From Bacteroidales bacterium (GTDB lineage Bacteria > Bacteroidota > Bacteroidia > Bacteroidales > UBA12077): DNA of 42,671 bases. The position numbers were made by a program, and so were the translations under genes. Under the pieces are notes generated by a model. The model did no database searches. It saw only the letters and a list, made by a program, of their open reading frames with translations, and had not been told where the DNA came from. The stretch spans positions 1-42,671 of the forward strand of contig JANQHR010000082.1 in the NCBI GenBank assembly GCA_028282585.1, written 5' to 3'. Shown in pieces: positions 10,488 to 33,908 of this stretch; position 1 is the first letter of the stretch, and every line of letters starts with the position of its first letter.

Positions 10488-10958
10488 CTAATTTCTAACC
10501 TTTGTTTTTTCCATAAAAATTGCCAACCCCACGCAAGCTTTTGTTCCTTCCAGAACGCTAACATTTTTTTCATTTGATACAATTGTAATTTCAATCGATA
10601 TTAATTCGGTATGATCCAGAGCCAGGCTGATATTATTGGTGTAGTTATCATATTTATTATCATAAATGACTTCTCCGTTAACTGAGCTTCTTAATTTGAA
10701 ACGCAATGGATAATATCTTTCCTCGGTACAGCACTGAATAATTATTTCTTTCTGACCATATAATACAACTTCATAAATTACGGTTTTTCCAACCCCTAAA
10801 TAATGACTACGTGATAAACTACTTAGTTTAAATCCTTCAATATCATCTACCAGACAGCTCTTTGATTTATGAAATTCATGACATTTTTGACCATGTGCAG
10901 GATTTATTAAACCAACAATGGTAATAACTATTATAATTAATAAATGATGAATCTTCAT
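10488..10958 (-). CDS. Secreted Cys-containing hypothetical protein (paralog of 10985 and 29792)
   Basis: Signal peptide ending AHG-Q; shared motifs C-x8-C, SR, VxYG, CT..YP..F, YDNK, CxG. Confidence 0.8.
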   Translation of the reverse strand: MKIHHLLIIIVITIVGLINPAHGQKCHEFHKSKSCLVDDIEGFKLSSLSRSHYLGVGKTVIYEVVLYGQKEIIIQCCTEERYYPLRFKLRSSVNGEVIYDNKYDNYTNNISLALDHTELISIEITIVSNEKNVSVLEGTKACVGLAIFMEKTKVRN

Positions 10959-10984
10959 GTGTATATTTTTTATATTAGATCGTG

Positions 10985-11461
10985 TTAAAAATTATCTTCC
11001 ATATAAATAGCCATGCCTATGCATGCTTTCCCATCTTTAGATTTTTTTATTTTACTTTCTTTTGGTTCAACACTTATTTCAATAGCCAGCAATTCGGTAT
11101 GATCAAGCAAGAAATTTAAATTATCTATATAATTGTTGTATTTATTATCGTAGATAACTTTTCCGCTTTCCGACTTTATAAGTTTAAAGTGAACCGGATA
11201 AAAATCATCTTCGGTACAACATTTAACAACAATTTCAATGCCACCATAAAAAACAAGTTCATATCTAACTGTTTTTCCTATCTCCAGATCATATCTTCTG
11301 GATAATCCACTACGCTTATATCTGTCTTCCGCAAATTCGTAGGTGCAATTAGCTGTTTCCAGAAAGTTTAAGCATTCCAGATCGCCTTTTGAAACTACTG
11401 TTGCAGAAGTATCTATTAATAGAGGAAATAGTAAACCCAATATGTATGTTTTTAGAATCAT
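10985..11461 (-). CDS. Secreted Cys-containing hypothetical protein (paralog of 10488 and 29792)
   Basis: Same motif set; VIYDNKY.NY and LDHTEL.IEI are shared with 10488. Confidence 0.8.
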   Translation of the reverse strand: MILKTYILGLLFPLLIDTSATVVSKGDLECLNFLETANCTYEFAEDRYKRSGLSRRYDLEIGKTVRYELVFYGGIEIVVKCCTEDDFYPVHFKLIKSESGKVIYDNKYNNYIDNLNFLLDHTELLAIEISVEPKESKIKKSKDGKACIGMAIYMEDNF

Positions 11462-11463
11462 TT

Positions 11464-12294
11464 TTAGCTATTATTTACTATCTCAGTTCGTATTTTAGAA
11501 ATAGTTTCTTTCAACTTGTAAAATTCCTCTTTCTCTATTTTAAGAGTAGGGCCTCCTTTAAATCGTATTTTTCCATCTGGGGTTCTGATCATTTCCCGTT
11601 TGGTTCCTTCTGTTAATTTTACCCTGTCGTAGATAGCTTGTATCTCTTTTAGGTAAACCAATATTGCCGCAAGATTTCGATTATTTTTATGTAAATCGCA
11701 CGATTTAACCAAATTATTAAATGCATATTTTTGTTCGGCCACTTTTTGAATTAAAGCACTATTTTCCTCGTAATTACCTGCAAGATTTACAGCTATGTAG
11801 ATACATTCGATATAAGCCCCCGCAATAATTAATGTCATTGCATTTTGATTATTATTAGCTTCCAGTTCGTGCATTATATCGTAATAATAAACATTGGTAA
11901 AGTGATAAATTGAGTCGAAATTATCAATGTTTTCTGTAAAATCGCTTACCAGATTTTCTTTTATCTGAGATGATATTAAGAGGTAATTACTTAGTTGACC
12001 AATAACTTCCAGATAATTTAAAACTTTTGTTCTTCTCGAAAAAAAAGCAGCATAGGCCATGTCTGCCATATAAATACCCAGGTTTAAGTTTCTCGATTTA
12101 GTATCAATGTATTTTGAAAGGTTTTCAGTTGGGTTCATCAGTTTGTTATCAAAGGATAACTGTCCCTCATCTATTACCGCAATCAGTTCACCCGGTGTGG
12201 GATAAAGGAAATAGACCTCGGCACTGGTTTGTGAGATAGAGATTTGGTGTAAGAACAAAAAGCAAAGGATGGAAATTAGAAGCTTATAATTCAT
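11464..12294 (-). CDS. Secreted alpha-helical hypothetical protein (paralog of lipoprotein 28849)
   Basis: PTPGE, NP..N...Y.D.KSR..NLGIY.AD.AY, GA..E..Y.AVN and QK..F.N motifs shared with 28849; signal peptide has no lipobox. Confidence 0.82.
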   Translation of the reverse strand: MNYKLLISILCFLFLHQISISQTSAEVYFLYPTPGELIAVIDEGQLSFDNKLMNPTENLSKYIDTKSRNLNLGIYMADMAYAAFFSRRTKVLNYLEVIGQLSNYLLISSQIKENLVSDFTENIDNFDSIYHFTNVYYYDIMHELEANNNQNAMTLIIAGAYIECIYIAVNLAGNYEENSALIQKVAEQKYAFNNLVKSCDLHKNNRNLAAILVYLKEIQAIYDRVKLTEGTKREMIRTPDGKIRFKGGPTLKIEKEEFYKLKETISKIRTEIVNNS

Positions 12295-12805
12295 TACGTT
12301 AAGTTTTAAATTGTGTACACTAAAAATATAAAAAAAATATGTAAAAATGAATTTAAGTTACCGATTAATAATGTGAGATTTATGGTTTATACGTTAGTAA
12401 GATACAGATAAATATTCACTTTTCCATATTATGTTTCCTTATACAAAAAGAATAAATTATTCAATCCCATAATTAGGTATTAATACCCTATTAATTTTTC
12501 AAGATTAGATTTAATTATGTATAGGCTTAAATGGATACAACAAGAGTCTGTAAAAATAAATTTAAGAATAAAGCTTTGTAAAACTGAGAAAGATAATTTT
12601 AATCAAAGTGTATTTTTAATAATGACCTATATATTAGTTATTTATAAGAAGAAGGATTATTAAATAAGTCTTTAAACAAATTAATTTAATGCACTATTGA
12701 AGCATACGATAATAAAAACAGTAAAAATTAAGATAAAAGAATTTGAAATAAGATAAAATATTTGTCCCAAGTAAAAATACCCGGTATTAAATCCTAAAAG
12801 GAAAA

Positions 12806-14908
12806 ATGATTATGAACAATAAAAGTAAATCTCGTGAAAAATTAATTCAGGAAAACGAGAAACTAGAGTTTCAATATTCAAGGTGCATTCGCTTATTAGA
12901 AAATGCCAGGGATATGATTTATCGAATGTCGCTTCCCGAAGGTATATATGAATATGTTAGTTCTGCTTCAAAAGAGGTTTTCGGTTACGAGCCGGAAGTT
13001 TTCTATAATAACCCGGTCCTTATCCGCGATGCAATTCATCCTGAGTTTGTTCAATATTTCCAAAAAGAGTGGGAAAATCTTTTAAACGATAAAATGCCTG
13101 AAACATATGAATATAAAATAATACATAAATCTGGTGAAGAAAGATGGTTAAATCAGCGTAATGTTCTTATAAAAAATGAATTTGGAAAACCCATAGCCAT
13201 AGAGGGAATTGTAACTGATATTACAGCAAGAAAAAAAGCAGAATTTGAACGCGACAAGCTAACTCTTGATATAGGAGAGCGAGTAAAGGAACTAAATTGT
13301 TTATATAAAATTTCGGATTATTCCTTCGAAGGAATTAGTATAGAAGAATTTATCCGAAAAGTAATTGAAATCATTCCTCCTTCATTTCAATACCCTGAAA
13401 CTACAAATGCGAAAATTACGATAGGAGAAAAGGAATATAAGAACAAAAATTATAAACCTTCAAAATGGAATTTAAAACATGACATAAAAATAGGAGAGCA
13501 AAAGGCAGGAATTATTGAAATAAATTATGAGGATGAAATGCCAGAACACTTTCAGGGACCATTTTTAAAGGAGGAGTTAAACCTGATTAATGGTATAGCT
13601 GAAATTGTAGGAAGAACAATTGATTTCAGAAGAAAGGAAAAAGAACTAAAAGAAAAAAACGAAGAGTACTTAACAATAAATGAAGAACTAAAAGAAAAAA
13701 ACAATGAATATCAGCTTTTAAATGAAAAATATATAACGCAAAATGAAGAGTTATTGGAACGAAATGAAGAATTTAAAGTAATTAACGAGGAACTAAAGAA
13801 ATCAAATCTACAACAATTAGCACTTTTCGATGGAATCGATGACGTTATTTATGTTGCTGACCCGGATACATATGAAATATTGTATTTTAATAAAACTGCA
13901 CGTGATATTTGGGGAAAGGATTCTTTAAGAAAAAAGTGTTACGAAATCTTACAGGGAAGAAAAGAACCATGCCCATTTTGTACTAATGATAAAATTTTTG
14001 GTAAAGATGAGGGTAACTCTGTAGTATGGGAATTTCAAAATGAGATTAGCAAACAGTGGTTTCGGTGTTCTGATAAGGCAATAAAATGGAGCAACGGAAA
14101 GATGGTTCGTTTTGAGTTGGCCAGCGATATTACAGAGCAAAAGAATACACAATTTAAATTGCAGAATACATTGAAGGAACTGGAGCGATCAAATAAAGAA
14201 TTAGAGCAATTTGCATATGTTGCTTCTCACGACCTGCAAGAACCACTTAGAAAAGTTAAAAACTTTACGGAGTTACTTGAAAGAAAATACAAAGGTGTAA
14301 TTGATAGTAAAGCAGATCAGTATATCAGATATATTACTTCCGGTGCAGATAGAATGCAAAACCTGGTTTTAGATTTACTAACGTTTTCAAGAGTTTCAAC
14401 TAAAGGTAAGGATTTTGTCTCAGCCGACTTTAATGAAATAGTTCAAAAGGTTTCAGATAACTTGCAATTAAGTATTGAAGAGGCTAAAGCACATATAGTT
14501 ACTAACGATTTGCCAGTTTTAAAAGTAGATGAGACACAAATAATGCAAGTTTTTCAGAATCTAATTAGTAATGCAATTAAATTCAAATCGGAGGTACCTC
14601 CGATTATAAATATAAATGCAGTGGAGAATGAAAACTATTGGCTGTTCGAAATCATCGATAATGGTATTGGGATGGATATGCAATATAAAGAAAAGATTTT
14701 TGAGATTTTTCAACGCCTTCACACTAAAGAAGAATATGAGGGCACCGGAATTGGTTTGGCAATATGTAAGAAGATTATTGAAAGGCATAATGGCAAAATA
14801 TGGGTAGAGTCTGAATTAGGAAACCTGTCTGCCCTGTCTTCCGAACAGGCAGGAAGTAGACAAAGCGGAACAAAATTTTATTTTACAATACCGAAAAAAA
14901 TTAAATAA
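12806..14908 (+). CDS. Cytoplasmic sensor histidine kinase: PAS - GAF-like - coiled coil - PAS - HisKA - HATPase (Cph1/BphP-type kinase core)
   Basis: FAYVASHDLQEPLR H-box, QNLISNAIKF, DNGIG, IFQRLH and GTGIGLAIC; PAC motifs GIVTDIT and ASDITE; no TM helix. Confidence 0.92.
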   Translation: MIMNNKSKSREKLIQENEKLEFQYSRCIRLLENARDMIYRMSLPEGIYEYVSSASKEVFGYEPEVFYNNPVLIRDAIHPEFVQYFQKEWENLLNDKMPETYEYKIIHKSGEERWLNQRNVLIKNEFGKPIAIEGIVTDITARKKAEFERDKLTLDIGERVKELNCLYKISDYSFEGISIEEFIRKVIEIIPPSFQYPETTNAKITIGEKEYKNKNYKPSKWNLKHDIKIGEQKAGIIEINYEDEMPEHFQGPFLKEELNLINGIAEIVGRTIDFRRKEKELKEKNEEYLTINEELKEKNNEYQLLNEKYITQNEELLERNEEFKVINEELKKSNLQQLALFDGIDDVIYVADPDTYEILYFNKTARDIWGKDSLRKKCYEILQGRKEPCPFCTNDKIFGKDEGNSVVWEFQNEISKQWFRCSDKAIKWSNGKMVRFELASDITEQKNTQFKLQNTLKELERSNKELEQFAYVASHDLQEPLRKVKNFTELLERKYKGVIDSKADQYIRYITSGADRMQNLVLDLLTFSRVSTKGKDFVSADFNEIVQKVSDNLQLSIEEAKAHIVTNDLPVLKVDETQIMQVFQNLISNAIKFKSEVPPIININAVENENYWLFEIIDNGIGMDMQYKEKIFEIFQRLHTKEEYEGTGIGLAICKKIIERHNGKIWVESELGNLSALSSEQAGSRQSGTKFYFTIPKKIK
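14824..14862. repeat. Nested palindromic REP-like element inserted in frame in the kinase gene
   Basis: CCTGTCTGC-[CCTGTCT-TCCGAAC-AGGCAGG]-AA-GTAGACA; the protein has 14 extra aa between VESELG and GTKFYF. Confidence 0.7.
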
Positions 14909-14910
14909 TT

Positions 14911-15354
14911 ATGAAAGAAGATTTAAAACGGATCGAGGTTCTTTTAGTCGAAGATGATCCTCAAGATGTTGAAATTACTAAAGAATTGATGGAGTTATCA
15001 AAGGTTAGACTAAATGTTAATGTAGTTGGAAACGGAGCAGAAGCTTTATCTTATCTTAGAAAGGAAAATGAATTTGCTAACTCAATGAGGCCTGATTTAA
15101 TACTGTTGGATCTAAACATGCCCAAAATGAATGGTAGAGAGTTTTTGCATGAAATAAAAAAAGATGATTCACTTTGTATGATTCCCGTCGTGATCCTTAC
15201 AACCTCAAAAGCAGATGAAGACATTGTTAAAACTTACAAACTTGGAGCAAGTTGCTATGTAACAAAACCTGTAGGTTTGGACCAATTTCAGAAGGTAGTT
15301 CAGGCTGTAGACAATTTTTGGTTTACTGTGGTTAAATATCCACCGAAATCATAA
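14911..15354 (+). CDS. Single-domain response regulator, Rcp1-type
   Basis: LLVEDD, PDLILLDLNMP, VVILTTS, YVTKP and the C-terminal FW motif; 2 bp after its kinase gene. Confidence 0.92.
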   Translation: MKEDLKRIEVLLVEDDPQDVEITKELMELSKVRLNVNVVGNGAEALSYLRKENEFANSMRPDLILLDLNMPKMNGREFLHEIKKDDSLCMIPVVILTTSKADEDIVKTYKLGASCYVTKPVGLDQFQKVVQAVDNFWFTVVKYPPKS

Positions 15355-15422
15355 TTTTTTAAAAGATTTTACCTAAACCAACTAAATATGATTGTTTTGA
15401 AACTGATTAATTTATTATAGTT

Positions 15423-18400
15423 ATGGATAAAAAAAATTATAAGATATTGCTTATCGAAGATGATGAGGGTGATGCTTTTTTATTCAAAGAAATAATAAGT
15501 GATGTTAAAAACTACAAATTTGATATTACAACCATAAAAACTTTAAAAGAAGCAATTAGTGAGTTAAAAGGTGAAAATTTTGAATTGGTAATAACCGATC
15601 TTGGATTGCCAGACAGTAATGGTATAGATACTTTTATAAAGTTAGCAGAGCACTTTAAGCATATACCCATCATAGTCTTAAGTGGATTAGGCAATGAACA
15701 GGTGGCCTTAAATTCAATAAAATTAGGAGCACAGGATTATATTGTTAAAGGAGAGTATGATGCTGAAAAAATGTTCCAAACCATTAGATATTCATACGGT
15801 AGAAAAAAATTATCAAATCAATTATTAGAAAGTACGGACAGATTTAAAAGTATAGCAGAGAATATACAGGATGGATTAACTATTATTGAGAACAAGAAAG
15901 TTGTATATGTTAATAACAGGATGACAGAGATAACAGGTTATTCGCTCGAAGAACTTAAGCTTATATATAACGGAGATACTGATATTGAAACTAATTTAAC
16001 AATTTTTTTTAACCAACTAAGCGATTCCGGTAATTTCTACGGAGATGAATCTTTATGGATTAAAAGGAAAGATGGCAGACGCTGTTACTTAAGAAATAGA
16101 ACAACGGTAAAAAAAACTAATGGACGTAAAATAGAAAAGTACATTTCTACAACAGATATTACAAATAACTGGAGAAATGAGACTATAAAGAATTTTGTAA
16201 ATACAATTACATCTTCAATTAATGTGGTTGAGAACGAAAAAGATTTTTTTAAAGTTATATATAAAGAGGTACATAAAATATTCAACGATAAGGAAATATG
16301 CCTTGCGATAACAAAGGAAAACCAAGTTGATTTTATTAATGTTAAGGATAAAAAGATTCAAATTCATGAGTTTCCGTTACATGAAAGCATGTGTAATTTA
16401 TTATTAGAAAATCAAGAAGCAAAATATTATAACGAAAAAGAGTTAAATAAACTTGTAAAAGAAGAGAACGCAAAGTTTAATGGAAAAGTTCCAAAATCAT
16501 GGCTAGGAGCCTCAATATATAGCAATAACAAAAAGCATGGTGTTTTAATTCTTAAAGATTTTGAAAATAATTCAGCTTTTAATGATGAAGATTTAGAGTT
16601 GGTTAAGTTTATTGCTAAACAAATTACTCTTGCCATTCAGAAAAACAAAAGTGAAGAAAAAATCCATCAACTATCATTATCCGTTGAGCAAAGCCCTGCC
16701 GCAGTAATTATAACTAATGTGGATGGGAATATTGAATATGTTAATAATACGTTTACCGAAGTTACCGGATATGAGAAAAATGAAGTTTTAGGGAAAAACC
16801 CCAGGATTCTGAAATCAGGAAAGACAACAGCAAAAACATACCTCGATTTATGGCAAACCATAGGCAAAAGTGAAACATGGAAAGGAATATTTATTAATAA
16901 AAAGAAATCAGGAGAGATTTATTACGAAGAGGCCAAGATCTCACCAATAACAAATCATGATAATAAAGTAACGCACTACGTAGCAATTAAAGAAGATATT
17001 TCTGAAAGAATTGAAAAAGAGAAAGAGTTATTAGTAGCAAAAGATAAAGCGGAAGAATCAGAGCGAAGAATTAAAGACCTGTTGATAGAAATGCAGATTA
17101 AAAATACGGAGATATCTGAATTATTAGATGGTGCTAAAAAAATCTTGGAACTTAGTTCGTTTAAAAAAATTGCTAAAATCCTTTTTGATTCCTGTAAAAA
17201 ACTTACCGGAGCAAAAGCAGGATATGTTGCTCTATTGTCAGAATCCGGCTATGAAAATAACATTCTTTTCATGGATAACGGAGACAATAATTACAATGTT
17301 GATCCCAATTTAGCTATGCTGGTTCGTGGACTAAAGGAGTTAGCTTACAAAAAAAAGGAAGTTGTTTATGATAACGATATTAATAATTCCGAATGGCTTA
17401 AACATTTACCGGAAGGTCATGCTGCAATGAAAAATGTATTAATTGCTCCGTTAATTATAAAGAATCAGGCTGTTGGTGTAATCGGAATTGCAAATAAACC
17501 TACCAATTTTACTACTTCGGATGCGAGAATTGTTAGTGCTTTTGGAGAATTAGCTTCTTTGGCATTATTTAATTCGCAAAATATTGAAGAATTAAAAGAA
17601 GCCAAAGAGAAAGCAGAAGAAAGTGATCAACTAAAATCGTCATTTTTATTGAATATGTCACATGAAGTGCGTACACCAATGAACGGTATTATTGGATTTT
17701 CTCAATTTCTTAGGGATCCGGAACTATCTTCCGAAAACAGGATTCGTTACATAAATATTGTAAATGAAAGTTGTCAGCAGTTGTTAAAAATTATTGAAGA
17801 TATACTTGAGATCTCTAAATTAGAAACTCAACAAGTAGAAATAATGAACGAAGAATTTGATCCTGAGGAGGTAACAAGTAATATCTTTTTGGAACATAAA
17901 GAAATTTGTGAACAAAAAGGAATTGATTTAAATTTTCATTGTAAGGCTTTAAAAAAGAGAAAATTATATTCGGATAAAATAAAAGTGGTTCAAATCCTCA
18001 AAAACTTATTAAACAACTCTATCAAGTTTACACATGAAGGCAAAATAGAAATTGGAATAAAAGATAACAAAGAACACATAAAATTCTTTGTTAAAGATAC
18101 CGGAATTGGTATAGAACCTGACCTAAAAGACAAGATTTTTGAAAGGTTTAGGCAGGCGGAAGTTGCAATGTCTAGAAATTATGGTGGAACTGGTTTAGGT
18201 TTAGCAATAGCAAAGGGATATATAGAATTAATGAATGGTAAAATTTGGGTAGAGTCAGAAAAGGATAAAGGTTCTACTTTCTATTTTGAATTACCATATC
18301 AAAACACAAAAAATGCGATAACTAAACCTATGGTAGAAGATGTTCAGGAACCAATAATAAGCTTTATTAACGCAAAAGTTCTGGTTGCAGAAGATGAGGA

Positions 18401-18740: not shown

Positions 18741-18764
18741 TCTGAATTTACTTTATATTAATAA

Positions 18765-21767: not shown

Positions 21768-21784
21768 ATCTAAATAATAATTTA

Positions 21785-24640
21785 ATGGAAAATAAAATTA
21801 ATGCTCTGTTTTATAATTATTCAAGTCAGGATATAAAGAAACTTGCAGAAGAGGTTCAAAAATTTGGATATTTTCTGAACTCTAATAATATCAAGGATTT
21901 GAATAGAGAAATGTTGAGCTTGAAGGATAAATACTGGGATGTGATTGTTTTTGATTATGAGTCTGTTAGAAAAAAATTAGATTCTTTGGTTAAACAACTC
22001 CTTGATTGGAATCCTCAGATGAGCATTTTGTTAGGTTCCGATAAATTCAATGAAAATCTTATTAAAGAGATTAATAAAATTGGCATTAACGACCTGGTTG
22101 TAAAATCAAATTTAAACCAGGTTTGTTTGGGTTTGATAAGGAATTTTGAGAAAACCAAAGTATTGGAGCAGTTTGATTTTACTAAAAAAGAACTATTACG
22201 TAGTCAAAAAACACAAAACGAACACGATCACTTTTTAAATCAAGTTATAGAATCGACATCAAATCCCATTTTCTACAAAGGAAGAGAAGGACGGTACCTG
22301 GGTTGTAATATAGCTTTTGCAGAATTCATAGGATTACCAAAAGAGGAGATTATTGGCAAAACTGTTTTTGATATTGCTCCTAAGGAGTTGGCAAGGAAAT
22401 ATTACGAAATGGATGAGGCATTTTTCAGAAATCCGGTTACTCAGAAATACGAATATAAAGTTGCTAATGTTAACGGTGATATAATGGACGTAATGTTCTA
22501 TAAAACGGCTCTAAGAGATGATGGTGGTAATGTGGTTGGATTATTGGGCCATATGTTCGATGTCACCTTACAGAGAAAGTCTGAAGCAGAAAAATTAAAG
22601 GAAAAAGAAATCGCAGATTTTATTTTGGATACGTCTGATAGAATATATATTACTCTGGACCTAAATGGTAATATAACCAGCGTAAACAAAAAAGCTTGTG
22701 AGACTCTGGAATTAAACAAGGATAAATTATTGGGCACAAATTGGTTCGATAGATTTATACCTGAAGGTGAGATAAAAGAAGTTAAAAACATTTTTCACGG
22801 TATAATTGACGGTTCGATAATTAATGATAAAAAAATTGAAGGAAATATTCTAACTGCCACAAAGAAACGGAAAGCTATATCATGGGAAAATAGACAGATA
22901 CGAGATTCCGGAGGGAAGGTAATAGGGACTTTAAGCTCAGGAAAGGAGTTTAAGCAAAAAGAAAAATTAGCACAAGAGCTTCAGATGAGCGAAAGAAAGT
23001 ACAAAGCATTAGTTGAAAATATGCATGAGGGATTGAGTATTATCGATTTTGAAGAAACGGTTGTTTTTTCAAATGCTTCATTCGATCATATATTTGGATA
23101 TGATGAGGGCGAGATGTTAGGTAAAAATATAAAAGACTTTATAATATCTGAAGATGTACCTAAAATACTTCAGGAAACAAAAAATAGAAAAAATAATATT
23201 AGTTCGCAATATAAATTAGGTATTAAGAGAAAAGACGGTAAAAAAAGAATTATAAAAGTTTCTTCTGTACCATGGATGAATGATAAAGAAGAGATTGTAG
23301 GTACATTGGGATTAGTAATTGATATAACAGCAGAGGAATATTCAACAAAACGACTTGAAAAGAAACTGTTGATTGAGCAATCTATTATTAATATCTCTTC
23401 ACAATTCATTTCGACTGATGATTTCGAATCAAAGTTGGAAGACTCATTAAAGGAATTGCATAATATAATTGAAGCCGAGCGTTACAGTATTCTAGCTATA
23501 AAAAACAATAAGTTAAACCTTGTTTTAAGAAAAAGTTATGGTAATACTTTAAAAGAGCTACCTAAATTGGAAGAAATGGATTATAATCTTTTTGAGTATT
23601 GTTTAAACATGCTTGAATCGCTCGATTTTATTTTTATTGATGATGTATCAAAATTACCGGAACAAGCGGGAGTAGAAAAAGAAACATTTAAAGAGTATAA
23701 TGTTTTTAATTTTCTTGGAATACCTTTTTACTCCGGTACAAAACTTAAAGGATTGTTAGTTATTAGCAATATTTATGAAGTTAATGAATGGACAATAGAA
23801 GATTTATCATTATTAAGAACAATTTCTGATATTATAGGGCACGCCTTTAGTCGAAAAGAAGCTGAAGATAAGGTAAATAAACTAAACAGGGAACTGGTGA
23901 CCAAAAATAAGGAACTGGAACAGGTAGTTTATGTAACATCACATGATATACGCTCTCCGGTTGTTAATATACTTGGTTTTAGTGATGAAATGATAAAAGC
24001 TTTAAATAAATTATCTGATAAAATATTTAATGAAAATAATAAAATCGTAAATAAGGAAGATATAGAGTTTCTTTTAGAAAAAGATATTCCGCACATTTTA
24101 AGCTTTATAAAAATAAGTGGGCAAAAAATTGATAAGTTATTATTGGCATTACTGAAACTGTCGCGTTTGGGAAGGGCAGCAATTAATAAAGTTAATGTAG
24201 ATATGAATCAGTTGATGAGTTCATTGATAAGTACTTTTGAGTACAAAATACACGAGGAGAATATTAACATTGTTGTTGATGATCTACCATCATGTTATAC
24301 TGATGAAGTTCAAATAAACCAGGTGTTTTCAAATTTAATTGATAATGCTATTAAATACCGATCATTAGAAAGAGAGGCTCAGATAAAAATTACAGGAAAG
24401 GAAGTGGGTGATAATATCATTTATTGTGTTGAGGATAATGGTATAGGAATTTCAGAAACAGAATTAGATAAGATATTTGACGTATTTTATCGCATCAATC
24501 CGGAGAATCAGAAAGGTGAAGGAATGGGATTATCTTTAATTAAAAAAACAATTGAACGATTAGATGGAAAGATAACGATAGGGTCAGAAGAAGGAGTTGG
24601 ATCGAGATTTTTTATAAACCTTGAAAAATCAATGGTTTAA
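21785..24640 (+). CDS. Histidine kinase: degenerate REC - 3 PAS - GAF - HisKA - HATPase
   Basis: YVTSHDIRSP, NLIDNAIKY, EDNGIG and GEGMGLS; N-terminal receiver-like region (WDVIVFDY, DLVVK); no TM. Confidence 0.9.
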   Translation: MENKINALFYNYSSQDIKKLAEEVQKFGYFLNSNNIKDLNREMLSLKDKYWDVIVFDYESVRKKLDSLVKQLLDWNPQMSILLGSDKFNENLIKEINKIGINDLVVKSNLNQVCLGLIRNFEKTKVLEQFDFTKKELLRSQKTQNEHDHFLNQVIESTSNPIFYKGREGRYLGCNIAFAEFIGLPKEEIIGKTVFDIAPKELARKYYEMDEAFFRNPVTQKYEYKVANVNGDIMDVMFYKTALRDDGGNVVGLLGHMFDVTLQRKSEAEKLKEKEIADFILDTSDRIYITLDLNGNITSVNKKACETLELNKDKLLGTNWFDRFIPEGEIKEVKNIFHGIIDGSIINDKKIEGNILTATKKRKAISWENRQIRDSGGKVIGTLSSGKEFKQKEKLAQELQMSERKYKALVENMHEGLSIIDFEETVVFSNASFDHIFGYDEGEMLGKNIKDFIISEDVPKILQETKNRKNNISSQYKLGIKRKDGKKRIIKVSSVPWMNDKEEIVGTLGLVIDITAEEYSTKRLEKKLLIEQSIINISSQFISTDDFESKLEDSLKELHNIIEAERYSILAIKNNKLNLVLRKSYGNTLKELPKLEEMDYNLFEYCLNMLESLDFIFIDDVSKLPEQAGVEKETFKEYNVFNFLGIPFYSGTKLKGLLVISNIYEVNEWTIEDLSLLRTISDIIGHAFSRKEAEDKVNKLNRELVTKNKELEQVVYVTSHDIRSPVVNILGFSDEMIKALNKLSDKIFNENNKIVNKEDIEFLLEKDIPHILSFIKISGQKIDKLLLALLKLSRLGRAAINKVNVDMNQLMSSLISTFEYKIHEENINIVVDDLPSCYTDEVQINQVFSNLIDNAIKYRSLEREAQIKITGKEVGDNIIYCVEDNGIGISETELDKIFDVFYRINPENQKGEGMGLSLIKKTIERLDGKITIGSEEGVGSRFFINLEKSMV

Positions 24641-24692
24641 GTTTATAAATTGAAATAAGTTTAGTACATTTAAGGATAAATAAACTAATAAA

Positions 24693-25817
24693 ATGACACA
24701 TTATACTCCAGATTCACAATATACCATTCTTGTTGTCGAGGACGATGTTGGATTACAATATTTAATAAAATCAAAACTAGAAGAGGAAAAGTACAATATT
24801 ATTACTGCAGTTTCCGGAGCCGAAGCGATGGATTTTATTAAGACACAAGATGTGTATTTAATGTTATTGGATTATAAGCTAGCTGATATTACCGGGAAAG
24901 AGTTATTACAAAATCTAAGCAAAGAAAATATAGAAATTCCATTTATTTTCATGACAGGTTTTGGTGATGAAAGGATTGCTGTTGAGATAATGAAATTAGG
25001 GGCCAAGGAATATCTTGTTAAAACCGGCGATTTTCTAAATCAAATCAATGTTATTGTCAATCGTATTATAAAGGAAATTGAGAATGATGAGAAATTAAAG
25101 CGAATGCAGAAAGAGGTGGAAAGCTTAAATAACATGAAAACTCATTTTCTTAATATGATAAGCCAGGAAATAAGAACACCCCTAACGGGAATATCCGGAG
25201 CATTGCACCAACTCAGAAATCAGGAATTTTCTTCAACTATTAGGGAACTTTTAGAAACACTGCAAAATTCGGTTCAACGTTTAGATGATTTTGCAAGTAA
25301 AACTATTCTTTCCACACAGTTAAGTTCAGGGAGGTATCAACTAAATATATCGGATCTCAATGTAAAAGAACTAATTCAGTATTGTTACCTGGAACTTACC
25401 AATGAGATAATGGACAAACAAATTGAGATTGTAGAAGATGTAGATCCGAACCTGGTTATAAAAGGAGATCGTGATTTAATGTATAAAGCATTTTTATATT
25501 TAATTGATAATGCTATTATTCTTACAAATCCGCAAACATCAGTAGATATAAAATTAGAGAAGGTCAATGGGTATATTAAATGTTCAATTCTTGATCATGG
25601 CGATATTGAAATTGAAGATCCGGAAGACCTGTTGATGAATCCATTTCTAGCTTCAAATCAAGATCTTTTGGGTAATTTCGGTTTAAGCCTGTTTTTGATT
25701 AATCAAATTGTAGAAAAACACGCCGGAAAGATTAAAATAAAAAGTCCAAAAGATGCAGGAATGCTTATTGAGCTTTATTTTAATCCTGACAAATTAATCA
25801 TAGAAGACAATGAATAA
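24693..25817 (+). CDS. Receiver domain fused to a pseudo-histidine kinase (H-box His replaced by Gln)
   Basis: Intact receiver (VEDD, LLDY, FMTG, YLVK); H-box reads MISQEIRTPL; eroded G boxes (DHGDIE, NFGLSL). Confidence 0.85.
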   Translation: MTHYTPDSQYTILVVEDDVGLQYLIKSKLEEEKYNIITAVSGAEAMDFIKTQDVYLMLLDYKLADITGKELLQNLSKENIEIPFIFMTGFGDERIAVEIMKLGAKEYLVKTGDFLNQINVIVNRIIKEIENDEKLKRMQKEVESLNNMKTHFLNMISQEIRTPLTGISGALHQLRNQEFSSTIRELLETLQNSVQRLDDFASKTILSTQLSSGRYQLNISDLNVKELIQYCYLELTNEIMDKQIEIVEDVDPNLVIKGDRDLMYKAFLYLIDNAIILTNPQTSVDIKLEKVNGYIKCSILDHGDIEIEDPEDLLMNPFLASNQDLLGNFGLSLFLINQIVEKHAGKIKIKSPKDAGMLIELYFNPDKLIIEDNE

Positions 25818-28800
25818 AATATTAATAGAATATATAATTCGTTTGTTTTCAATAATCTCTAACATTTATTCCTCTGTTCCGAGTACAAATGTAAAAGATT
25901 TTATATCATCCATTTTAAAGAAAGAATTTGGTAAAGAAGCAGTAAAAGATTTTGTATCTCAATTTGAGTTGAATTACTTAAAATATAAAGAAATAAAATC
26001 AGAAAATAAGGAGGCACTTAAAGATATACTAGTGAGATTAACAAGAGAAGTTAATGATAAGCTGCCTCAATGGGAGCGATTTGTAATATTAATTAGATTG
26101 CTGCTTTTTAATAAATTTCTTTTGCGATATCCTTTTCACAAAAGCGAAAGCCAGATTCGATTATCTGACTTACTAAAGGAAATAGCTTCTGAGTTGAATA
26201 TTGATGATAATGAGTATAAAAACTGTAAATCATTCGTAGAAGAAAAACTATATAACTTAAAAGAGAAGGAAAACTTATTACTACTTTGCGAAAAAAAGCC
26301 TTTTAATATAGAAATTAGTTTTTTTGAGAAAGACGGTTTTAAGGGGCAGCTTTACTTTCTGATAATTAAAAGCATAAAACTGATTATTTTTTATTACAAG
26401 GGTAAAGAAAATATACAATTTAATAATCAGATTATATTCCCTGAAAATATTTACATACTTCCCAAAGGTGCTTCAATCAAGGGAGAACATATTGAACCGA
26501 TATATTACAATCAGATTCTAAGACATTTTTTGTCTGAAGAAACGGTACAATTATTTTTTGAGGCTAAAGATGTTGATTTCAGGTTTAAAAATAGTAAAAA
26601 TGGAATCCATGATTTAAAAGCAAGTATTAAATCAGGCCAGATAATTGGCATAATAGGGCGTAGTGGTGTTGGAAAATCTACTTTACTAAGTTTGTTAAAC
26701 GGAACTCTTTTACCACAAAAGGGACAAGTTACTATAAACAAATTTGATATAATAGAAGATCAGGACAAACTCGAAGGGCTTATCGGGTATATTCCTCAAG
26801 ATGATCTTCTTGTTGAGGAACTGTCTGTTTTTAAAAACTTATACCTAAATGCTAAACTTTGTTTTGGAGATCTTACAAATGAGAAGATAGAAGAAAAAAT
26901 AAGTCAATTGCTTAAAGACCTTGACTTATATGACGTAAAAGACCTAAAGGTTGGTAGTCCGTTGAACAAGTTTATAAGCGGAGGACAGCGTAAGCGATTA
27001 AATATTGCCCTGGAGTTGGTTCGAGAACCTTATATTTTATTTGCCGATGAACCAACTTCAGGATTATCATCATCTGATTCTGAAGAAATCATGCAATTGT
27101 TTACAGAGCAAACTATTAAGGGGCGGATTGTGGTAATGAATATACATCAACCTTCATCTGATACTTTTAAATCGTTCGATAAAATTTTATTACTTGATAA
27201 AGAAGGGTATCCGGTTTATTTTGGTAATCCGGTAGAATCAATTCCATATTTTAATAAACTTGCGGAAAGTTTTGTAACAGTAGCTGATAGTTGTCAAACT
27301 TGCGGAAATATAAATCCGGAATCAATATTTAAAATTCTTGAAGAAAGAAAAGTAAATAAAAAAGGAGAGTTTGTAAGTTTTCGAAAAGTTAAACCCAACG
27401 AATGGCATCAGCATTATCAGGAACAAATAAAATCAATTAAAGAATCGATTGATATAAAGAAAGAGATTCCAAAAATTACATTTAACAGGCCAAATTTCTT
27501 AAAACAATTTCTAATTTTTAGTGAACGTAATTTTTTATCAAAATTTGCTAATAAACAGTATGTATTATTAGCATTTCTGATAACACCCTTATTGTCAATA
27601 ATTCTTTCATTATTGTGTAAACACACAAGTTCAGATTTCAATCATTATGTTTTATATGGAAATGAGAACATTCCGGCTTATCTTTTTATGGCAGTTATTG
27701 TTGCATTATTTGTTGGTTTAATTATTAGTGCGGAAGATATTTATCGCGATCGAAAAATACTTAAACGAGAAGCTTTCCTTAAGCTAAATAAAATAAGTTA
27801 CCTAAAATCAAAAATTCTTTTCTTATTTATTTTAAGTGCTATTCAGGCTTTATTATTTGTAATATTAGGTAACTGGATACTCGGAATTAAAGGGATGATA
27901 TTTTACTATTGGATCATTCTTTTCTCAACATTTTGTTTTGCAAACGTTGTTGGATTGCTTATATCATCATTGTTTAACTCAATTGTTGTAATTTACATAC
28001 TGGTGCCGTTATTTATAGTTCCTCAAATATTATTAAGTGGAACCATGGTTGAATATGACAAACTAAACTCTAAAGTAATAAGTGATGAATATGTTCCTTT
28101 TGTTGGTGATATAATGGCCTCACGATGGGCTTATGAGGCTATTGTTGTCTCTCAGTTTGAAAAAAATAAGTATCAGAAGAAGTATTATAAATATGACCAA
28201 CAGGATAGTTATGCACGTTTTAATGTTTTATTCTTAATTCCGGAATTAAAAGATGCTGTTGATATACTTAGAGATGGTTTAAGAGATGGTAATATTAAAG
28301 AGTTAGAGGATCACTATAAATTATTGATTTATGAACTTGGAAAGACTAGTTCCAGACCTTTCTCCGATCTTAAGAAACTAAGATTTGATGAGTTATCTGT
28401 TGAAATGTTGAATTCTATTGAAAATTATCTAAATCAGTTGAACTCAGAATTAATAGAGATTGTAAATAACGTATCTTACGAGAAGGATAGTATTACTCAT
28501 GAACTAATTTCCAAACTGGGTGATATTGAAAGTTATAATAATTTTAAAAACAGGAATTCGAATAAAAGCATAAATGAATTGGTTTTAAGGAGACAAACTT
28601 TTAAACCATTTATAAAAAACAATAATAAGATTATCAGAAAAATTGAACCAATTTATCATGTTCCGGGATCAAAGATTGGGAGATCTCATTTTTTCGCGTC
28701 TGAGAAAAAATTAGGTTCGTTAACCATAAATACAATAAGCTTTAATATAATTGTTCTTTGGTTTATGACACTATTTTTTTGTATCTTTTTAATCATTTTG

Positions 28801-28818
28801 TTTTATAGAAAATTTTAA
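25810..28818 (+). CDS. ABCG/White-like NBD-first ABC half-transporter with N-terminal extension
   Basis: GRSGVGKST, YIPQDD, ISGGQRKRLNIALEL, ADEPTSGL and NIHQP, followed by an ABC2-type TMD (LKRE, PQILLSG, SRWAYEA) with a large loop before the last TM. Confidence 0.88.
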   Translation: MNKILIEYIIRLFSIISNIYSSVPSTNVKDFISSILKKEFGKEAVKDFVSQFELNYLKYKEIKSENKEALKDILVRLTREVNDKLPQWERFVILIRLLLFNKFLLRYPFHKSESQIRLSDLLKEIASELNIDDNEYKNCKSFVEEKLYNLKEKENLLLLCEKKPFNIEISFFEKDGFKGQLYFLIIKSIKLIIFYYKGKENIQFNNQIIFPENIYILPKGASIKGEHIEPIYYNQILRHFLSEETVQLFFEAKDVDFRFKNSKNGIHDLKASIKSGQIIGIIGRSGVGKSTLLSLLNGTLLPQKGQVTINKFDIIEDQDKLEGLIGYIPQDDLLVEELSVFKNLYLNAKLCFGDLTNEKIEEKISQLLKDLDLYDVKDLKVGSPLNKFISGGQRKRLNIALELVREPYILFADEPTSGLSSSDSEEIMQLFTEQTIKGRIVVMNIHQPSSDTFKSFDKILLLDKEGYPVYFGNPVESIPYFNKLAESFVTVADSCQTCGNINPESIFKILEERKVNKKGEFVSFRKVKPNEWHQHYQEQIKSIKESIDIKKEIPKITFNRPNFLKQFLIFSERNFLSKFANKQYVLLAFLITPLLSIILSLLCKHTSSDFNHYVLYGNENIPAYLFMAVIVALFVGLIISAEDIYRDRKILKREAFLKLNKISYLKSKILFLFILSAIQALLFVILGNWILGIKGMIFYYWIILFSTFCFANVVGLLISSLFNSIVVIYILVPLFIVPQILLSGTMVEYDKLNSKVISDEYVPFVGDIMASRWAYEAIVVSQFEKNKYQKKYYKYDQQDSYARFNVLFLIPELKDAVDILRDGLRDGNIKELEDHYKLLIYELGKTSSRPFSDLKKLRFDELSVEMLNSIENYLNQLNSELIEIVNNVSYEKDSITHELISKLGDIESYNNFKNRNSNKSINELVLRRQTFKPFIKNNNKIIRKIEPIYHVPGSKIGRSHFFASEKKLGSLTINTISFNIIVLWFMTLFFCIFLIILFYRKF

Positions 28819-28848
28819 AAATTATATAAACTAAAAAACTTTTATCTC

Positions 28849-29745
28849 ATGAAAATGAAATTACTATTTATTCTAAGTTTCTTTGCGGTTTTTACCTTGG
28901 CCCAATGTAAATCTGATAAAAAAGCAGAGAAAGAACAACCAATCGAAACGGAAGAAAACCAAGGTTTTGATGATGAGGAACAAGTTGTTTATATGTTACC
29001 TTCGCCTGATGAGATTTTTAACGAAATATTTATTGAAGATATAGAGCTAAAACCTGAATTTGTTAATCCAGCAACAAATGCAACAAACTACGTGGATATT
29101 AAATCGCGATCGGTGAATCTGGGTATTTACATTGCCGATTTTGCTTACCTGAGTGCTATTGATGATAGTGCCGATGAATTAGAATATTTAAGAATAATTC
29201 GTGATTTAATGGATAAAGTGAATTTATACGGGATCGTTGATGAAGAAATGTTAAACAGAATAAACGATAATTTAATGGTTAAGGATTCATTAGATAAAAT
29301 TTCACAAGAGCTATATTATAAAATGTCCAGAACGCTTGAAAATTCGGACAGAAATAATATTCTGGTTTTAATTTCAACCGGAGCGATTGTTGAAGCCCTT
29401 TATTTAGCCGTAAATAATATTGATTTTGATCATTCAGGAGAAGTAATTCAGAAGATCTTCGATCAAAAATTTGTTTTTGATAACTATTATGAGTTTGCAT
29501 CAAATTACTCCGATGATATTTATGTTAAAACTGTTTTAAGCGAACTAGCAGCAATTAGAAATATGTTTGATCACCTGGATTATAAGGAAAGTGATATAAA
29601 AGTTAAGAAAGAGGGAGGCGATGATTTCTTGGTAATTCAGGGAGGTAAAGAAATTATAGTTACGGAAGAAGCATATTTAGGATTTAGAGAAAATATAACA
29701 AACGTAAGGACTCTGTTGGTAAGCATCTCAAAATCTATTAATTAA
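28849..29745 (+). CDS. Alpha-helical lipoprotein of unknown function (paralog of 11464)
   Basis: Lipobox LAQC, then a charged/acidic linker; PSPDE and NLGIYIADFAY motifs. Confidence 0.85.
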   Translation: MKMKLLFILSFFAVFTLAQCKSDKKAEKEQPIETEENQGFDDEEQVVYMLPSPDEIFNEIFIEDIELKPEFVNPATNATNYVDIKSRSVNLGIYIADFAYLSAIDDSADELEYLRIIRDLMDKVNLYGIVDEEMLNRINDNLMVKDSLDKISQELYYKMSRTLENSDRNNILVLISTGAIVEALYLAVNNIDFDHSGEVIQKIFDQKFVFDNYYEFASNYSDDIYVKTVLSELAAIRNMFDHLDYKESDIKVKKEGGDDFLVIQGGKEIIVTEEAYLGFRENITNVRTLLVSISKSIN

Positions 29746-29760
29746 GCTTAAATAAACTTG

Positions 29761-29768
29761 TATATTTG
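29761..29768 (+). promoter_or_regulatory. Internal -7 promoter box (TATATTTG) before the 156-aa gene
   Basis: Exact TAnnTTTG 23 bp upstream of ATG 29792. Confidence 0.5.
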
Positions 29769-29791
29769 ATAGAAACTTAAAATTTAAAGTT

Positions 29792-30262
29792 ATGGTTTGC
29801 CTTAAAAAAATATATTTCATTTTTATTATATCAATAATTTCATTTTCAGTTCAGGCACAAAGGTGCGATGGTTATCATAAAACAGGTGATTGTAAAATAT
29901 ACAGATCAGATGGATTTGAATATTACGGGCAATCACGAAGCGCCTTGTTAGAAATAAGAAAAAAAGCAGCTTTTAAAGCCGTTTTCTATGGGCAACGTGA
30001 TTATAAAGTAGTTTTATGTACCGATTATGGTTATTATCCAATTCATTTTGTAATAAGTAATGCAGATACTAAAGAGGTTTTATATGATAATAAAGAGGAT
30101 GATTATGTTGAATCTGTTGGCTTTACAATAGATAAAACGCAAAACTTAGTATTCGATGTTACAATATTAGCAGAGGATTTAAAGGCAGAAGATGCATTTG
30201 ATTTAAGAATCTGCACGGGAGTAAACATATATTGGAGAAAAGTACCAAAAATGGGATTTTAA
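29792..30262 (+). CDS. Secreted 4-Cys hypothetical protein (paralog of 10488 and 10985)
   Basis: Signal peptide ending VQA-Q; C-x8-C, QSRS, VFYG, LCT..YYPIHF, LYDNK and ICTG. Confidence 0.85.
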   Translation: MVCLKKIYFIFIISIISFSVQAQRCDGYHKTGDCKIYRSDGFEYYGQSRSALLEIRKKAAFKAVFYGQRDYKVVLCTDYGYYPIHFVISNADTKEVLYDNKEDDYVESVGFTIDKTQNLVFDVTILAEDLKAEDAFDLRICTGVNIYWRKVPKMGF

Positions 30263-30275
30263 CTTGTCCTGTAAT

Positions 30276-31079
30276 ATGCTTAGAGTTAAGTTATTACTTC
30301 TTTCAATTATAGCTGTATTATCTGCAAGTTCTCAAAATCTTGTACGCAATTATAGTTTTGAAGATTATGATGTTTGCCCAAATGAAGTTACCATCGATTC
30401 CAGAAAAGAATTAATTCCACACTGGTACATGCCTAATAAAGGCACAACGGATTACTTTAATAGTTGTGCCTTTCGCCAGGTAAACGTACCGGATAATGTA
30501 ATGGGTCATATGTATGCGCTTCAAGGAGATGCTTATGCAGGTATTATCTTGATTGAACAGCCTCCATCGGAATCCGAATTAAAAAAACCTCTCCATTATA
30601 GAGAATATTTACAGGCACAGTTAACATCACCCTTAAAAAAGGATAGCCTTTATTGCGTTCAATTTTATTTTTGTATTGCTTCGTACTCAACATATGCTGT
30701 AAATAAGCTAGGTCTGTTTATTTCGAAAGAGCCTGTAATAAAAAGATTAAGTACTAAAGTTATTGAAGTTGAACCACAAATTTCTGTGGATACAGGTAAT
30801 ATTTATAATGATCGGGATAATTGGTATCAGGTGTGTGATACTTTCAGATCGAGTGGTGATGAACAATTTATTACAATCGGTAATTTTTTTGATGATTATC
30901 ATACCAGAATTGAAAAATTGGATATTTCTATTTACCGAGGTACTATTCAGCAAAGCATAAATGAAAACAAATTAGCTTATTATTACATTGATTATGTTAC
31001 CGTAACACCTGTTTTAGATACACTGTCTAGCTTTTGTATAAATAGATTTTCAATAAAACCAAAAAAGGAGTCTGATTAG
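30276..31079 (+). CDS. Secreted beta-sandwich protein resembling the N-terminal domain of Bacteroidota OmpA/T9SS-cargo proteins
   Basis: Signal peptide, then QNLV.N.SFE..CP, DYFNSC..VPDN..G, YAG, REYLQ..L..PL, ITIGNF and YYYID.V. Start set at ATG 30276 (ORF track uses TTG 30264). Confidence 0.75.
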   Translation: MLRVKLLLLSIIAVLSASSQNLVRNYSFEDYDVCPNEVTIDSRKELIPHWYMPNKGTTDYFNSCAFRQVNVPDNVMGHMYALQGDAYAGIILIEQPPSESELKKPLHYREYLQAQLTSPLKKDSLYCVQFYFCIASYSTYAVNKLGLFISKEPVIKRLSTKVIEVEPQISVDTGNIYNDRDNWYQVCDTFRSSGDEQFITIGNFFDDYHTRIEKLDISIYRGTIQQSINENKLAYYYIDYVTVTPVLDTLSSFCINRFSIKPKKESD

Positions 31080-31089
31080 ACCCCTTTTT
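31061..31089. terminator. Bidirectional intrinsic terminator between convergent genes
   Basis: AAAAAAGGAGTCT-GATT-AGACCCCTTTTT: stem flanked by A and T runs. Confidence 0.75.
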
Positions 31090-31997: not shown

Positions 31998-32030
31998 ATT
32001 ATCCTTTAATACGGTTTGCCACTAAAAATG

Positions 32031-33772: not shown

Positions 33773-33908
33773 AATGAAAATTCTATAATACGTTTGGTAA
33801 AGATATTGTAAATCATATCAAATTTAAATACCGAATATCTATATTATTAGTCCGTTGATCGAAAAACGTAAATGTGTTTTATATTTTTTCGTAATTTCAA
33901 AACTAAAA

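Follow-up and report, generated by a model that had tools for sequence, protein, structure and literature searches.

In a stretch of 42,671 nucleotides from a Bacteroidales bacterium (GTDB lineage UBA12077; GenBank assembly GCA_028282585.1, contig JANQHR010000082.1, positions 1 to 42,671 of the forward strand), here called the window in its full length, we analysed a locus in which six signalling genes lead into the gene of an ABCG-like ATP-binding cassette transporter (hereafter ABC) and on to three genes for secreted proteins, which we call A, B and C. ABC and A, frequently together with B, recur side by side elsewhere in the same genome and in other members of the Bacteroidota, and it is on this linkage that the reading developed below is built. 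The window has a G+C content of 30% and belongs to a genome of 4.9 Mb in 173 contigs.

All 13 open reading frames (ORFs) listed in a preliminary description of the locus were found at their positions (Table 1). Ten of them lie on the plus strand (12806-31079), separated by 2, 68, 24, 17, 52, -8, 30, 46 and 1 bp, which gives the same maximum of 68 bp as reported before, and both the Pfam domains and the gene spacing agree with the earlier view of a six-gene phosphorelay running into an ABCG-like transporter. Across the divergent intergenic region we recovered the second module described there, A'-B'-B'', on the minus strand (10488-12294, with gaps of 26 and 2 bp), whose products are paralogs of A and B. 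The terminator placed after C stood up only in part: a 12-pair hairpin is present, but it covers the last 18 nt of C, with the C stop codon in its loop, and its hit in the terminator scan was on the minus strand, behind the convergent gene at 31112-31948. As a plus-strand version would carry mismatches, the hairpin would be a bidirectional terminator at best. A scan for sigma-70-type promoters returned sites at or below shuffled counts, with a consensus that may not be that of the host; Bacteroidota promoters deviate from the sigma-70 consensus. Among sequencing runs, none of RNA was listed as containing the stretch, and one DNA run that contains it may be its source.

Table 1. Genes and features of the locus, in window coordinates.
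Feature	Position	Strand	Evidence or remarks
B'', 156-aa secreted B-family protein	10488..10958	-	B-family hidden Markov model, 3.6e-58
B', 158-aa secreted B-family protein	10985..11461	-	B-family hidden Markov model, 5.7e-55
A', 276-aa A-family protein	11464..12294	-	Signal peptide, without lipobox Cys
Divergent intergenic region, A' to first kinase gene	12295..12805	.	511 bp, AT-rich
Histidine kinase PAS-HisKA-HATPase, soluble, 700 aa	12806..14908	+	Pfam; without hydrophobic span
Stand-alone receiver (REC), 147 aa	14911..15354	+	Pfam
Hybrid kinase REC-PAS-GAF-HisKA-HATPase-REC, 1105 aa	15423..18740	+	Pfam
Hybrid kinase PAS x3-HisKA-HATPase-REC, 1000 aa	18765..21767	+	Pfam
Kinase PAS-GAF-HATPase, 951 aa, with H-box-like SHDIRSP	21785..24640	+	Pfam and sequence
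REC-HisKA-HATPase protein, 374 aa	24693..25817	+	Pfam; 8-bp overlap with ABC start
ABCG-like half-transporter, 1002 aa (N-domain, nucleotide-binding domain, transmembrane domain with large loop)	25810..28818	+	Pfam, TIGR00955, ABCG1/ABCG2
ABC N-terminal domain (predicted cytoplasmic), residues 1-255; TerB-like plus unassigned beta-rich part	25810..26574	+	TerB in relatives
Loop predicted periplasmic, residues 743-979, flanked by TM5 and C-terminal TM6	28036..28746	+	Hydropathy
A, 298-aa helical secreted protein, probably lipoprotein, undescribed family	28849..29745	+	
B, 156-aa secreted beta-sandwich (predicted), 4 Cys, undescribed family	29792..30262	+	
C, 271-aa secreted protein, undescribed family; TTG start 1 nt past B stop	30264..31079	+	
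Terminator-like 12-pair hairpin flanked by A and T runs, between convergent genes	31062..31089	.	

An ABCG-like transporter and its secreted partners

Within the transporter, ABC_tran covers residues 267-417 and ABC2_membrane residues 566-783 (Pfam), so that the nucleotide-binding domain (NBD) precedes the ABC-2-type transmembrane domain (TMD) in one polypeptide, as it does in the ABCG half-transporters (ABCG1, ABCG2 and ABCG5/8; White family). In line with this, phmmer searches against solved proteins returned human ABCG2 (3e-37, residues 273-751) and ABCG1 (8.7e-37, residues 258-782), with NBD and TMD both covered, and the White/ABCG model TIGR00955 is matched at 2.2e-71. By sequence, the transporter core is closest to the eukaryotic ABCG half-transporters, yet its 241.2 bits fall far under the curated cut-off of 736.35 for that model. 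Given that Walker A (G283-T291), Q330, the SGGQ motif (S390-Q393), Walker B (D413-E414) and H446 are all invariant in 26 homologs, the transporter should be active. The linker between NBD and TMD contains a CxxC pair (C495 and C498; 27292-27303) with the consensus ECxxCGNxNPE, at least 90% conserved in 26 homologs, which in a homodimer could form a shared metal or redox site.

Two parts of the protein set it apart from ABCG. The first is a loop. By hydropathy, five hydrophobic spans fall within residues 585-742 and one more, a strong one, covers 980-998 at the end, with 237 soluble residues in between. The largest outward loop of ABCG proteins lies between their last two spans, a trait that the window's transporter shares by hydropathy, and with a cytoplasmic NBD this arrangement would put residues 743-979 in the periplasm. 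They are accordingly predicted to form an unusually large last loop of ~235 residues, conserved at its ends in the homolog alignment; the loop of ABCG is far smaller. The second is an N-terminal domain of 255 residues, which in its own genome is restricted to five paralogous transporters (profile search). TerB (PF05099) is matched in three of these five, twice above the cut-off (4.8e-11 and 3e-7) and once below it (9.7e-4), and TerB was also the lead of an Atlas search of the domain (score 0.90). A word-indexed homolog search with this domain returned 16 close relatives, and the wider range discussed below comes from profile searches of genomes. ABC differs from ABCG, moreover, in being bacterial and in having dedicated periplasmic partner genes.

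A, B and C each start with a hydrophobic signal segment. A is 27% identical to A' over 251 residues (E 6e-33), and the model of A (pLDDT 78.9, pTM 0.76) shows a bundle of helices, a single beta-hairpin and a helix at the C-terminus, which agrees with the first half of its earlier label, helical lipoprotein. The second half is less secure: Cys20, at least 90% conserved in 18 sequences and thus nearly invariant, points to a lipoprotein, yet the window copy has the motif L-A-Q-C (Gln at -1), which we take not to be a canonical lipobox, and A' has no lipobox Cys. B, described before as a four-Cys secreted protein, fits that description, as B, B' and B'' are 28-30% identical (43-47% between B' and B'') and share four invariant Cys (C25, C34, C76 and C141), although among 30 members of the wider B family C141 is the only one of the four to reach at least 90% conservation. 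Its model is a beta-sandwich (pLDDT 86.3).

None of A, B, C, A', B' and B'' has a real match in Pfam or NCBIfam, and profile searches with A, B and C against PDB sequences returned only noise. Foldseek comparison of the A model with the PDB gave 52 matches, none of them at E <= 0.001. The best matches of the B model were p24 GOLD (1.7e-4, target TM 0.69), PliG (2.7e-4) and the ColH collagen-binding domain (5.9e-4), at sequence identities of 7-15% and query TM values of 0.41-0.52 and with no sequence-level match; judged on the predicted model, this likeness is generic sandwich similarity and not membership in any of these families. A, B and C are, as far as sequence can tell, undescribed families, as the preliminary description had held for A and B.

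An Atlas search for A returned unnamed Bacteroidota clusters only. In a 50%-identity library the family comprises 2873 cluster representatives at E <= 0.001, of which 1140 remain at E <= 1e-30; the 150 representatives listed are all single stretches of 229-340 residues, mostly around 300, and 77 closer relatives carry only the name "hypothetical protein". Carriers include metagenome-assembled genomes (MAGs) of Bacteroidales, a Tenuifilaceae MAG, a Salinivirga MAG and Perlabentimonas gracilis (a strain record, locus L124), and further MAGs of Flavobacteriales, Cryomorphaceae, Cytophagaceae, Cyclobacteriaceae and Sphingobacteriaceae. Distant A-like genes with neither B nor ABC nearby are found on Flavobacteriales-type contigs (L162, L165, L168, L172, L146, L149, L150, L156 and L158) in two recurring contexts, either after ORFs of ~950 and ~190 residues or before ORFs of ~512 and ~215 residues. 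C, on the other hand, is specific to the ortholog group of the window and has no paralog in its own genome; in 20 related loci B is followed by an ortholog of C, at identities of 44-84%.

Linkage and co-divergence across Bacteroidota

The genome that contains the window encodes five paralogous ABC genes with products of ~1000 residues, 37-41% identical to the window copy over their full length, with the identity extending through the unassigned N- and C-terminal parts. Each of the five adjoins an A paralog, in the orders ABC-A-B-C (window), ABC-A-B (contig C100), A-B-ABC (C116), A-ABC (C32) and ABC-A-divergent B (C6). Sets of A and B genes without a neighbouring ABC occur twice, as A'-B'-B'' in the window and once more on C116.

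Among 400 other Bacteroidota genomes, the A profile matches 12, and a profile of the ABC N-domain (first 255 residues) matches the same 12 plus, weakly, an ORF of 252 residues. A is directly adjacent to ABC, on the same strand, at 17 of the 23 ABC genes of those 12 genomes. B is the less universal partner: with an iterated profile it was found after A in 16 of the 26 A loci of other genomes, it adjoins A at 62 of the 90 A genes of named loci, and it is missing from one whole clade, that with the order A-ABC. The linkage of ABC, A and B proposed from the single locus is therefore conserved in other genomes, and neither A nor B turned out to match a characterised system.

At the six ABC loci without an adjacent A, the gene content differs: in L079 an A gene lies 4 kb off on the other strand, L083 has B only, L088, L090 and L091 have a small unrelated lipoprotein instead, and nothing recognisable is found in L089. 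The small lipoprotein-like ORFs (L088:10122-10619, L090:10164-10604 and L091:6538-6975) are 145-165 residues long and share the conserved motif EEWxxxDxFHMxMAExFHP. Profile comparison ruled out that these ORFs and the 300-residue ORFs that also follow ABC at the three loci are divergent forms of B or A.

ABC and A have also diverged together. Over 21 pairs, their distance matrices correlate with a Mantel r of 0.879, a value reached in none of 2000 permutations, and the maximum-likelihood trees of ABC and of A contain the same five clades. Every clade matches one gene order and holds one paralog from the window's genome together with orthologs from other families, and because the paralogs of this one genome fall into different clades with the orthologs of other families, the ABC paralogs are old, each with its own A retained. 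Such a pattern is what co-evolving partners would be expected to look like. As the two are linked and evolve together across genomes, the pump and A are very likely parts of one envelope machine, and on comparative genomics we regard the functional coupling of ABC and A as highly probable.

This evidence also bears on the simplest alternative, in which the ABC gene would be one of ordinary drug efflux, and A, B and C periplasmic proteins unrelated to it and encoded next to it by chance. The sources label ABC simply as a multidrug-type ATPase, and A-B pairs do occur without a nearby ABC, but chance neighbourhood is contradicted by the linkage of all five paralogs in one genome, by the identical phyletic pattern of A and the ABC N-domain in the 400 genomes, by the persistence of A beside ABC in three different gene orders and by the congruence of the ABC and A trees, and we consider it extremely improbable. 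Complex prediction counts neither for nor against binding. With residues 565-1002 of ABC, 24-156 of B and 47-298 of A, the score of A was 0.68, 0.67 and 0.68 in three runs and fell to 0.00 and 0.08 when A was replaced; since it was still 0.50 when the ABC chain was replaced, the score is not specific to ABC.

The A'-B'-B'' module had been seen as a set of interchangeable accessory subunits. In a quick tree of A sequences, A' shares a subclade with two ABC-linked A proteins, those of the window and of C100, and on four related MAG contigs (L129, L130, L133 and L136) A'-B'-B'' is found again in divergent orientation, which may at most hint faintly at interchangeability. All carriers are Bacteroidota apart from L109, where a full cluster of REC-kinase, ABC, A, B and C genes stands under the name of a "Thiohalospira sp." MAG, an assignment for which mis-binning is the likeliest explanation.

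Signalling genes beside the transporter

The six genes upstream of ABC (12806-25817) encode histidine kinases and receiver proteins with an abundance of PAS and GAF domains (Pfam). Pfam detected no DNA-binding output domain in any of them, and hydropathy no segment resembling a membrane span except one inside a GAF domain, a profile that supports a cytoplasmic location for all six proteins. The connection between phosphorelay and transporter seen in the window extends beyond it: an ortholog of the REC-HisKA-HATPase protein lies directly upstream of ABC in 22 of the 44 ABC-bearing related named loci, at identities down to ~22%, and in other clades it is SiaA, SiaB and SiaC genes that precede ABC.

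An example of the latter is found on contig C6, where an operon encodes a SiaA-like PP2C protein (2.7e-48), a SiaB-family kinase (9.9e-53, above the cut-off), SiaC (Pfam, 1.3e-42), ABC, A and B. On contig C32 a SiaC gene follows ABC, so that SiaC-family genes flank two of the five ABC paralogs of this genome (Pfam); in other genomes they flank nine of the 23 ABC genes, with Pfam in agreement at all four loci checked, and the order SiaA-like, SiaB-family kinase, SiaC, ABC, A, B recurs in one clade. In the SiaABCD pathway of Pseudomonas aeruginosa, as reported, the phosphorylation state of SiaC is set by SiaA and SiaB and controls the cyclase SiaD via direct binding (PMC7647112), with unphosphorylated SiaC acting through binding of its effector (PMC7647112, PMC8457831). 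The paralogous modules preserve this order of SiaA-like PP2C, SiaB-family kinase, SiaC and effector gene, but in their effector slot they hold ABC and not a diguanylate cyclase: no GGDEF protein is encoded among the scanned flanking genes of the C6 locus, in which the gene after SiaC is ABC. By analogy, then, ABC occupies the position of SiaD in SiaABC-type operons, while at the window locus a phosphorelay takes the place of SiaABC.

A protein encoded directly upstream of ABC in L079 (5895-6992, plus strand, 365 residues) joins the two families: the ABC N-domain profile is matched over residues 80-250 (9.1e-11) and SiaC over residues 246-364 (9.5e-35). The locus additionally carries a separate SiaC gene, two SiaB-like genes and a PP2C gene. 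The fusion, of which this is the one case seen, argues that SiaC and the ABC N-domain may interact, and from it and the adjacency of the genes we infer that SiaC could bind ABC. The window's own genome has an unusually large partner-switch repertoire, including at least six SiaB-like (DUF6272) proteins.

The same arrangement might be read in the opposite direction, with ABC and A, B and C sensing a ligand or their own flux and informing the kinases or SiaC through the N-domain, which would place signalling downstream of the transporter. Such outside-in sensing would suit kinases without membrane or periplasmic sensor domains and a REC-kinase gene that is translationally coupled to ABC and conserved beside it, and flux sensing by an ABC transporter is known from Bce-type systems. 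The many PAS and GAF domains of the kinases can, however, sense alone, the slot after SiaC is the output position of siaABCD-like operons, and the operon encodes no transcription-factor output, for which reasons we find this direction of signalling very unlikely.

A position in the slot of an effector enzyme, in signalling operons without transcriptional output, would also suit a transporter that moves no substrate at all. ATP hydrolysis would then reshape the periplasmic loop and so switch A, B and C from the inside out, as FtsEX does with EnvC. The large predicted loop with its conserved ends, the dedicated partners that co-diverge with each ABC paralog and the lack of conserved substrate-related enzyme genes beside the module all accord with such mechanotransmission. 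The membrane domain, however, is of the ABC-2/ABCG type, whose characterised members are exporters, known mechanotransmitters belonging to another fold class, and neither A nor B has an enzyme-like family match that would need a switch. We therefore judge it unlikely, though not as unlikely as outside-in sensing.

Between these two we would rank a role in detoxification or immunity, in which a membrane-active compound such as an antimicrobial peptide, a surfactant or a pigment is expelled and A and B bind or shield, a role that we consider quite unlikely. Among ABC-2 immunity transporters, LanFEG has an accessory lipoprotein (LanI) and a two-component system (LanRK), and Bce-type modules are comparable. 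Such a role would fit the presence of several paralogous modules in one genome, each next to signalling genes of its own, the patchy distribution (12 of 400 genomes) and the extracytoplasmic partner proteins, and SiaABCD of P. aeruginosa is reported to respond to surfactant stress (PMC7647112). In contrast to what this role would lead one to expect, the kinases are soluble PAS/GAF proteins and not membrane sensors, biosynthetic or bacteriocin genes are not conserved nearby, and A and B have no sequence similarity to known immunity proteins.

At 8225-10276 of the window, convergent with A'-B'-B'' and 211 bp from the end of B'', lies the gene of a 683-residue fusion of an AraC-type HTH with TPR. 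Downstream, a lipoprotein-like ORF of 278 residues without a family (31112-31948; weak Riean_0653 match, 0.006) converges with C and is followed by a pair of LytTR response regulator and LytS-type His_kinase (32031-33772). Next come two PD40 (beta-propeller repeat) paralogs of 343 residues each (33855-34886 and 35876-36907), with ~1 kb between them that contains no ORF of at least 70 residues; the G+C minimum of the window (24.6%, block 32001-34000) neighbours this pair. A protein of 883 residues (37060-39711) begins with a hydrophobic segment and has REC and a LuxR-type GerE domain confined to its last 210 residues, the first ~670 being without a Pfam match.

Proposed mechanism and known relatives

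The core of the system would be a conserved Bacteroidota envelope module, consisting of a homodimer-type ABCG-like half-transporter, a dedicated A, usually B and, at the window locus, also C. We read it as a signal-gated exporter that hands its cargo to periplasmic A and B, a reading that, taken as a whole, we hold to be evenly balanced between right and wrong. In it, ATP hydrolysis would power the export of a compound, hydrophobic or amphipathic, from the inner membrane; at the large loop this compound would be passed to the helical A, with the beta-sandwich B, as an extracytoplasmic acceptor or adaptor, C being a further extracytoplasmic component; and cytoplasmic signalling proteins encoded next to the transporter would switch transport post-translationally by acting on its N-domain. 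The switch would be the six-gene soluble PAS/GAF phosphorelay, ending in the REC-kinase and without DNA-binding output, in the window, and the SiaA/SiaB/SiaC partner switch in the paralogous modules. That the neighbouring signalling proteins regulate transport through the N-domain has, in our estimate, an even chance of being correct, and export to A and B as acceptors is a more tentative proposal, somewhat more doubtful than probable. ABCG and ABCA exporters do pass lipids to extracellular acceptors. Of the transport apparatus originally proposed, what stands is that ABC and A, joined less universally by B, are conserved and inherited together as a module and that its link to a phosphorelay recurs; export itself keeps the conditional standing just given. 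The TerB-like N-domain, the large predicted loop, the five-fold paralogy and the SiaABC connection go beyond that proposal.

A bolder version would have SiaC, or the phosphorelay of the window, bind the TerB-like N-domain and gate the exporter directly, with a lipid-like cargo loaded onto A proteins as bacterial counterparts of apolipoproteins, assisted by B, and with the five modules serving as five separately signalled channels of envelope remodelling. If correct, it would amount to a novel mode of control over membrane transport. In this full form we consider it speculative and rather unlikely.

Two described systems offer partial parallels. In Mycobacterium tuberculosis, Rv1747 is reported to be an FHA-domain ABC exporter encoded in one operon with its controlling kinase PknF (PMC3138270, PMC3908365, PMC8339232). 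By description, it resembles the window's ABC in being an exporter with N-terminal regulatory domains that is encoded with a signalling partner. In contrast to Rv1747, however, ABC has no convincing FHA domain, the place of the Hanks-type kinase is taken by histidine-kinase and receiver proteins or by a SiaABC partner switch, and the module is Gram-negative and includes periplasmic partners. The other parallel lies in the Bacteroidota themselves, where GldA, GldF and GldG form the ABC-2 transporter of gliding motility, which needs an accessory envelope protein and whose substrate is unknown. The NBD and TMD of Gld are encoded in separate genes, GldG being large and membrane-anchored, and the likeness is one of general plan, as A, B and C match no Pfam family, that of GldG included.

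Several observations weigh against the signal-gated exporter. Six of the 23 ABC genes have no adjacent A, and the 12 genomes that carry the module come from four families and are kin rather than independent samples. Conversely, half of the A genes in named loci (45 of 90) lack an ABC gene at a distance of two genes or less, 18 of these lying near a contig end, and as A-B pairs adjoin unrelated housekeeping genes in distant taxa, A and B can presumably act without this ABC. On the signalling side, the window's own locus contains no SiaABC genes, and of the 17 SiaC-family genes in the genome, whose products all exceed the Pfam cut-off, only two adjoin ABC paralogs, from which it would follow that SiaC serves many partners. 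In the transporter itself, the periplasmic placement of the loop draws on hydropathy and ABCG topology, and the N-domain of the window copy has no Pfam match, TerB being matched in 13 of 26 members of the ABC family (E <= 0.01). An FHA domain, considered for residues 160-250, was dropped: it reached 18.4 bits against a cut-off of 20.7 and was seen in one of the five paralogs, a profile search of PDB sequences with the N-domain returned noise and no FHA match, and Ser-x-x-His, the FHA motif, was not apparent by eye in the N-domain alignment.

Little is understood of ABCG-like exporters in bacteria that have dedicated partners in the periplasm, and the module adds to them an ABC exporter whose regulatory and accessory parts are new. 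We found no paper describing this architecture or such control of an ABC transporter (TerB-ABC or SiaC-ABC combinations), subscription journals lying outside the coverage of the search. The signal-gated exporter is open to experiment, since cultured carriers exist, the Perlabentimonas gracilis strain being one. For the A family, with its 2873 representatives and no Pfam or NCBIfam entry, the tie to a transporter is a first handle on many "hypothetical" proteins of the envelope. For the transporters, their place behind signalling modules without transcriptional output, together with the natural fusion of SiaC to a region like the ABC N-domain, suggests that two-component or partner-switch proteins may control ABC directly and post-translationally.

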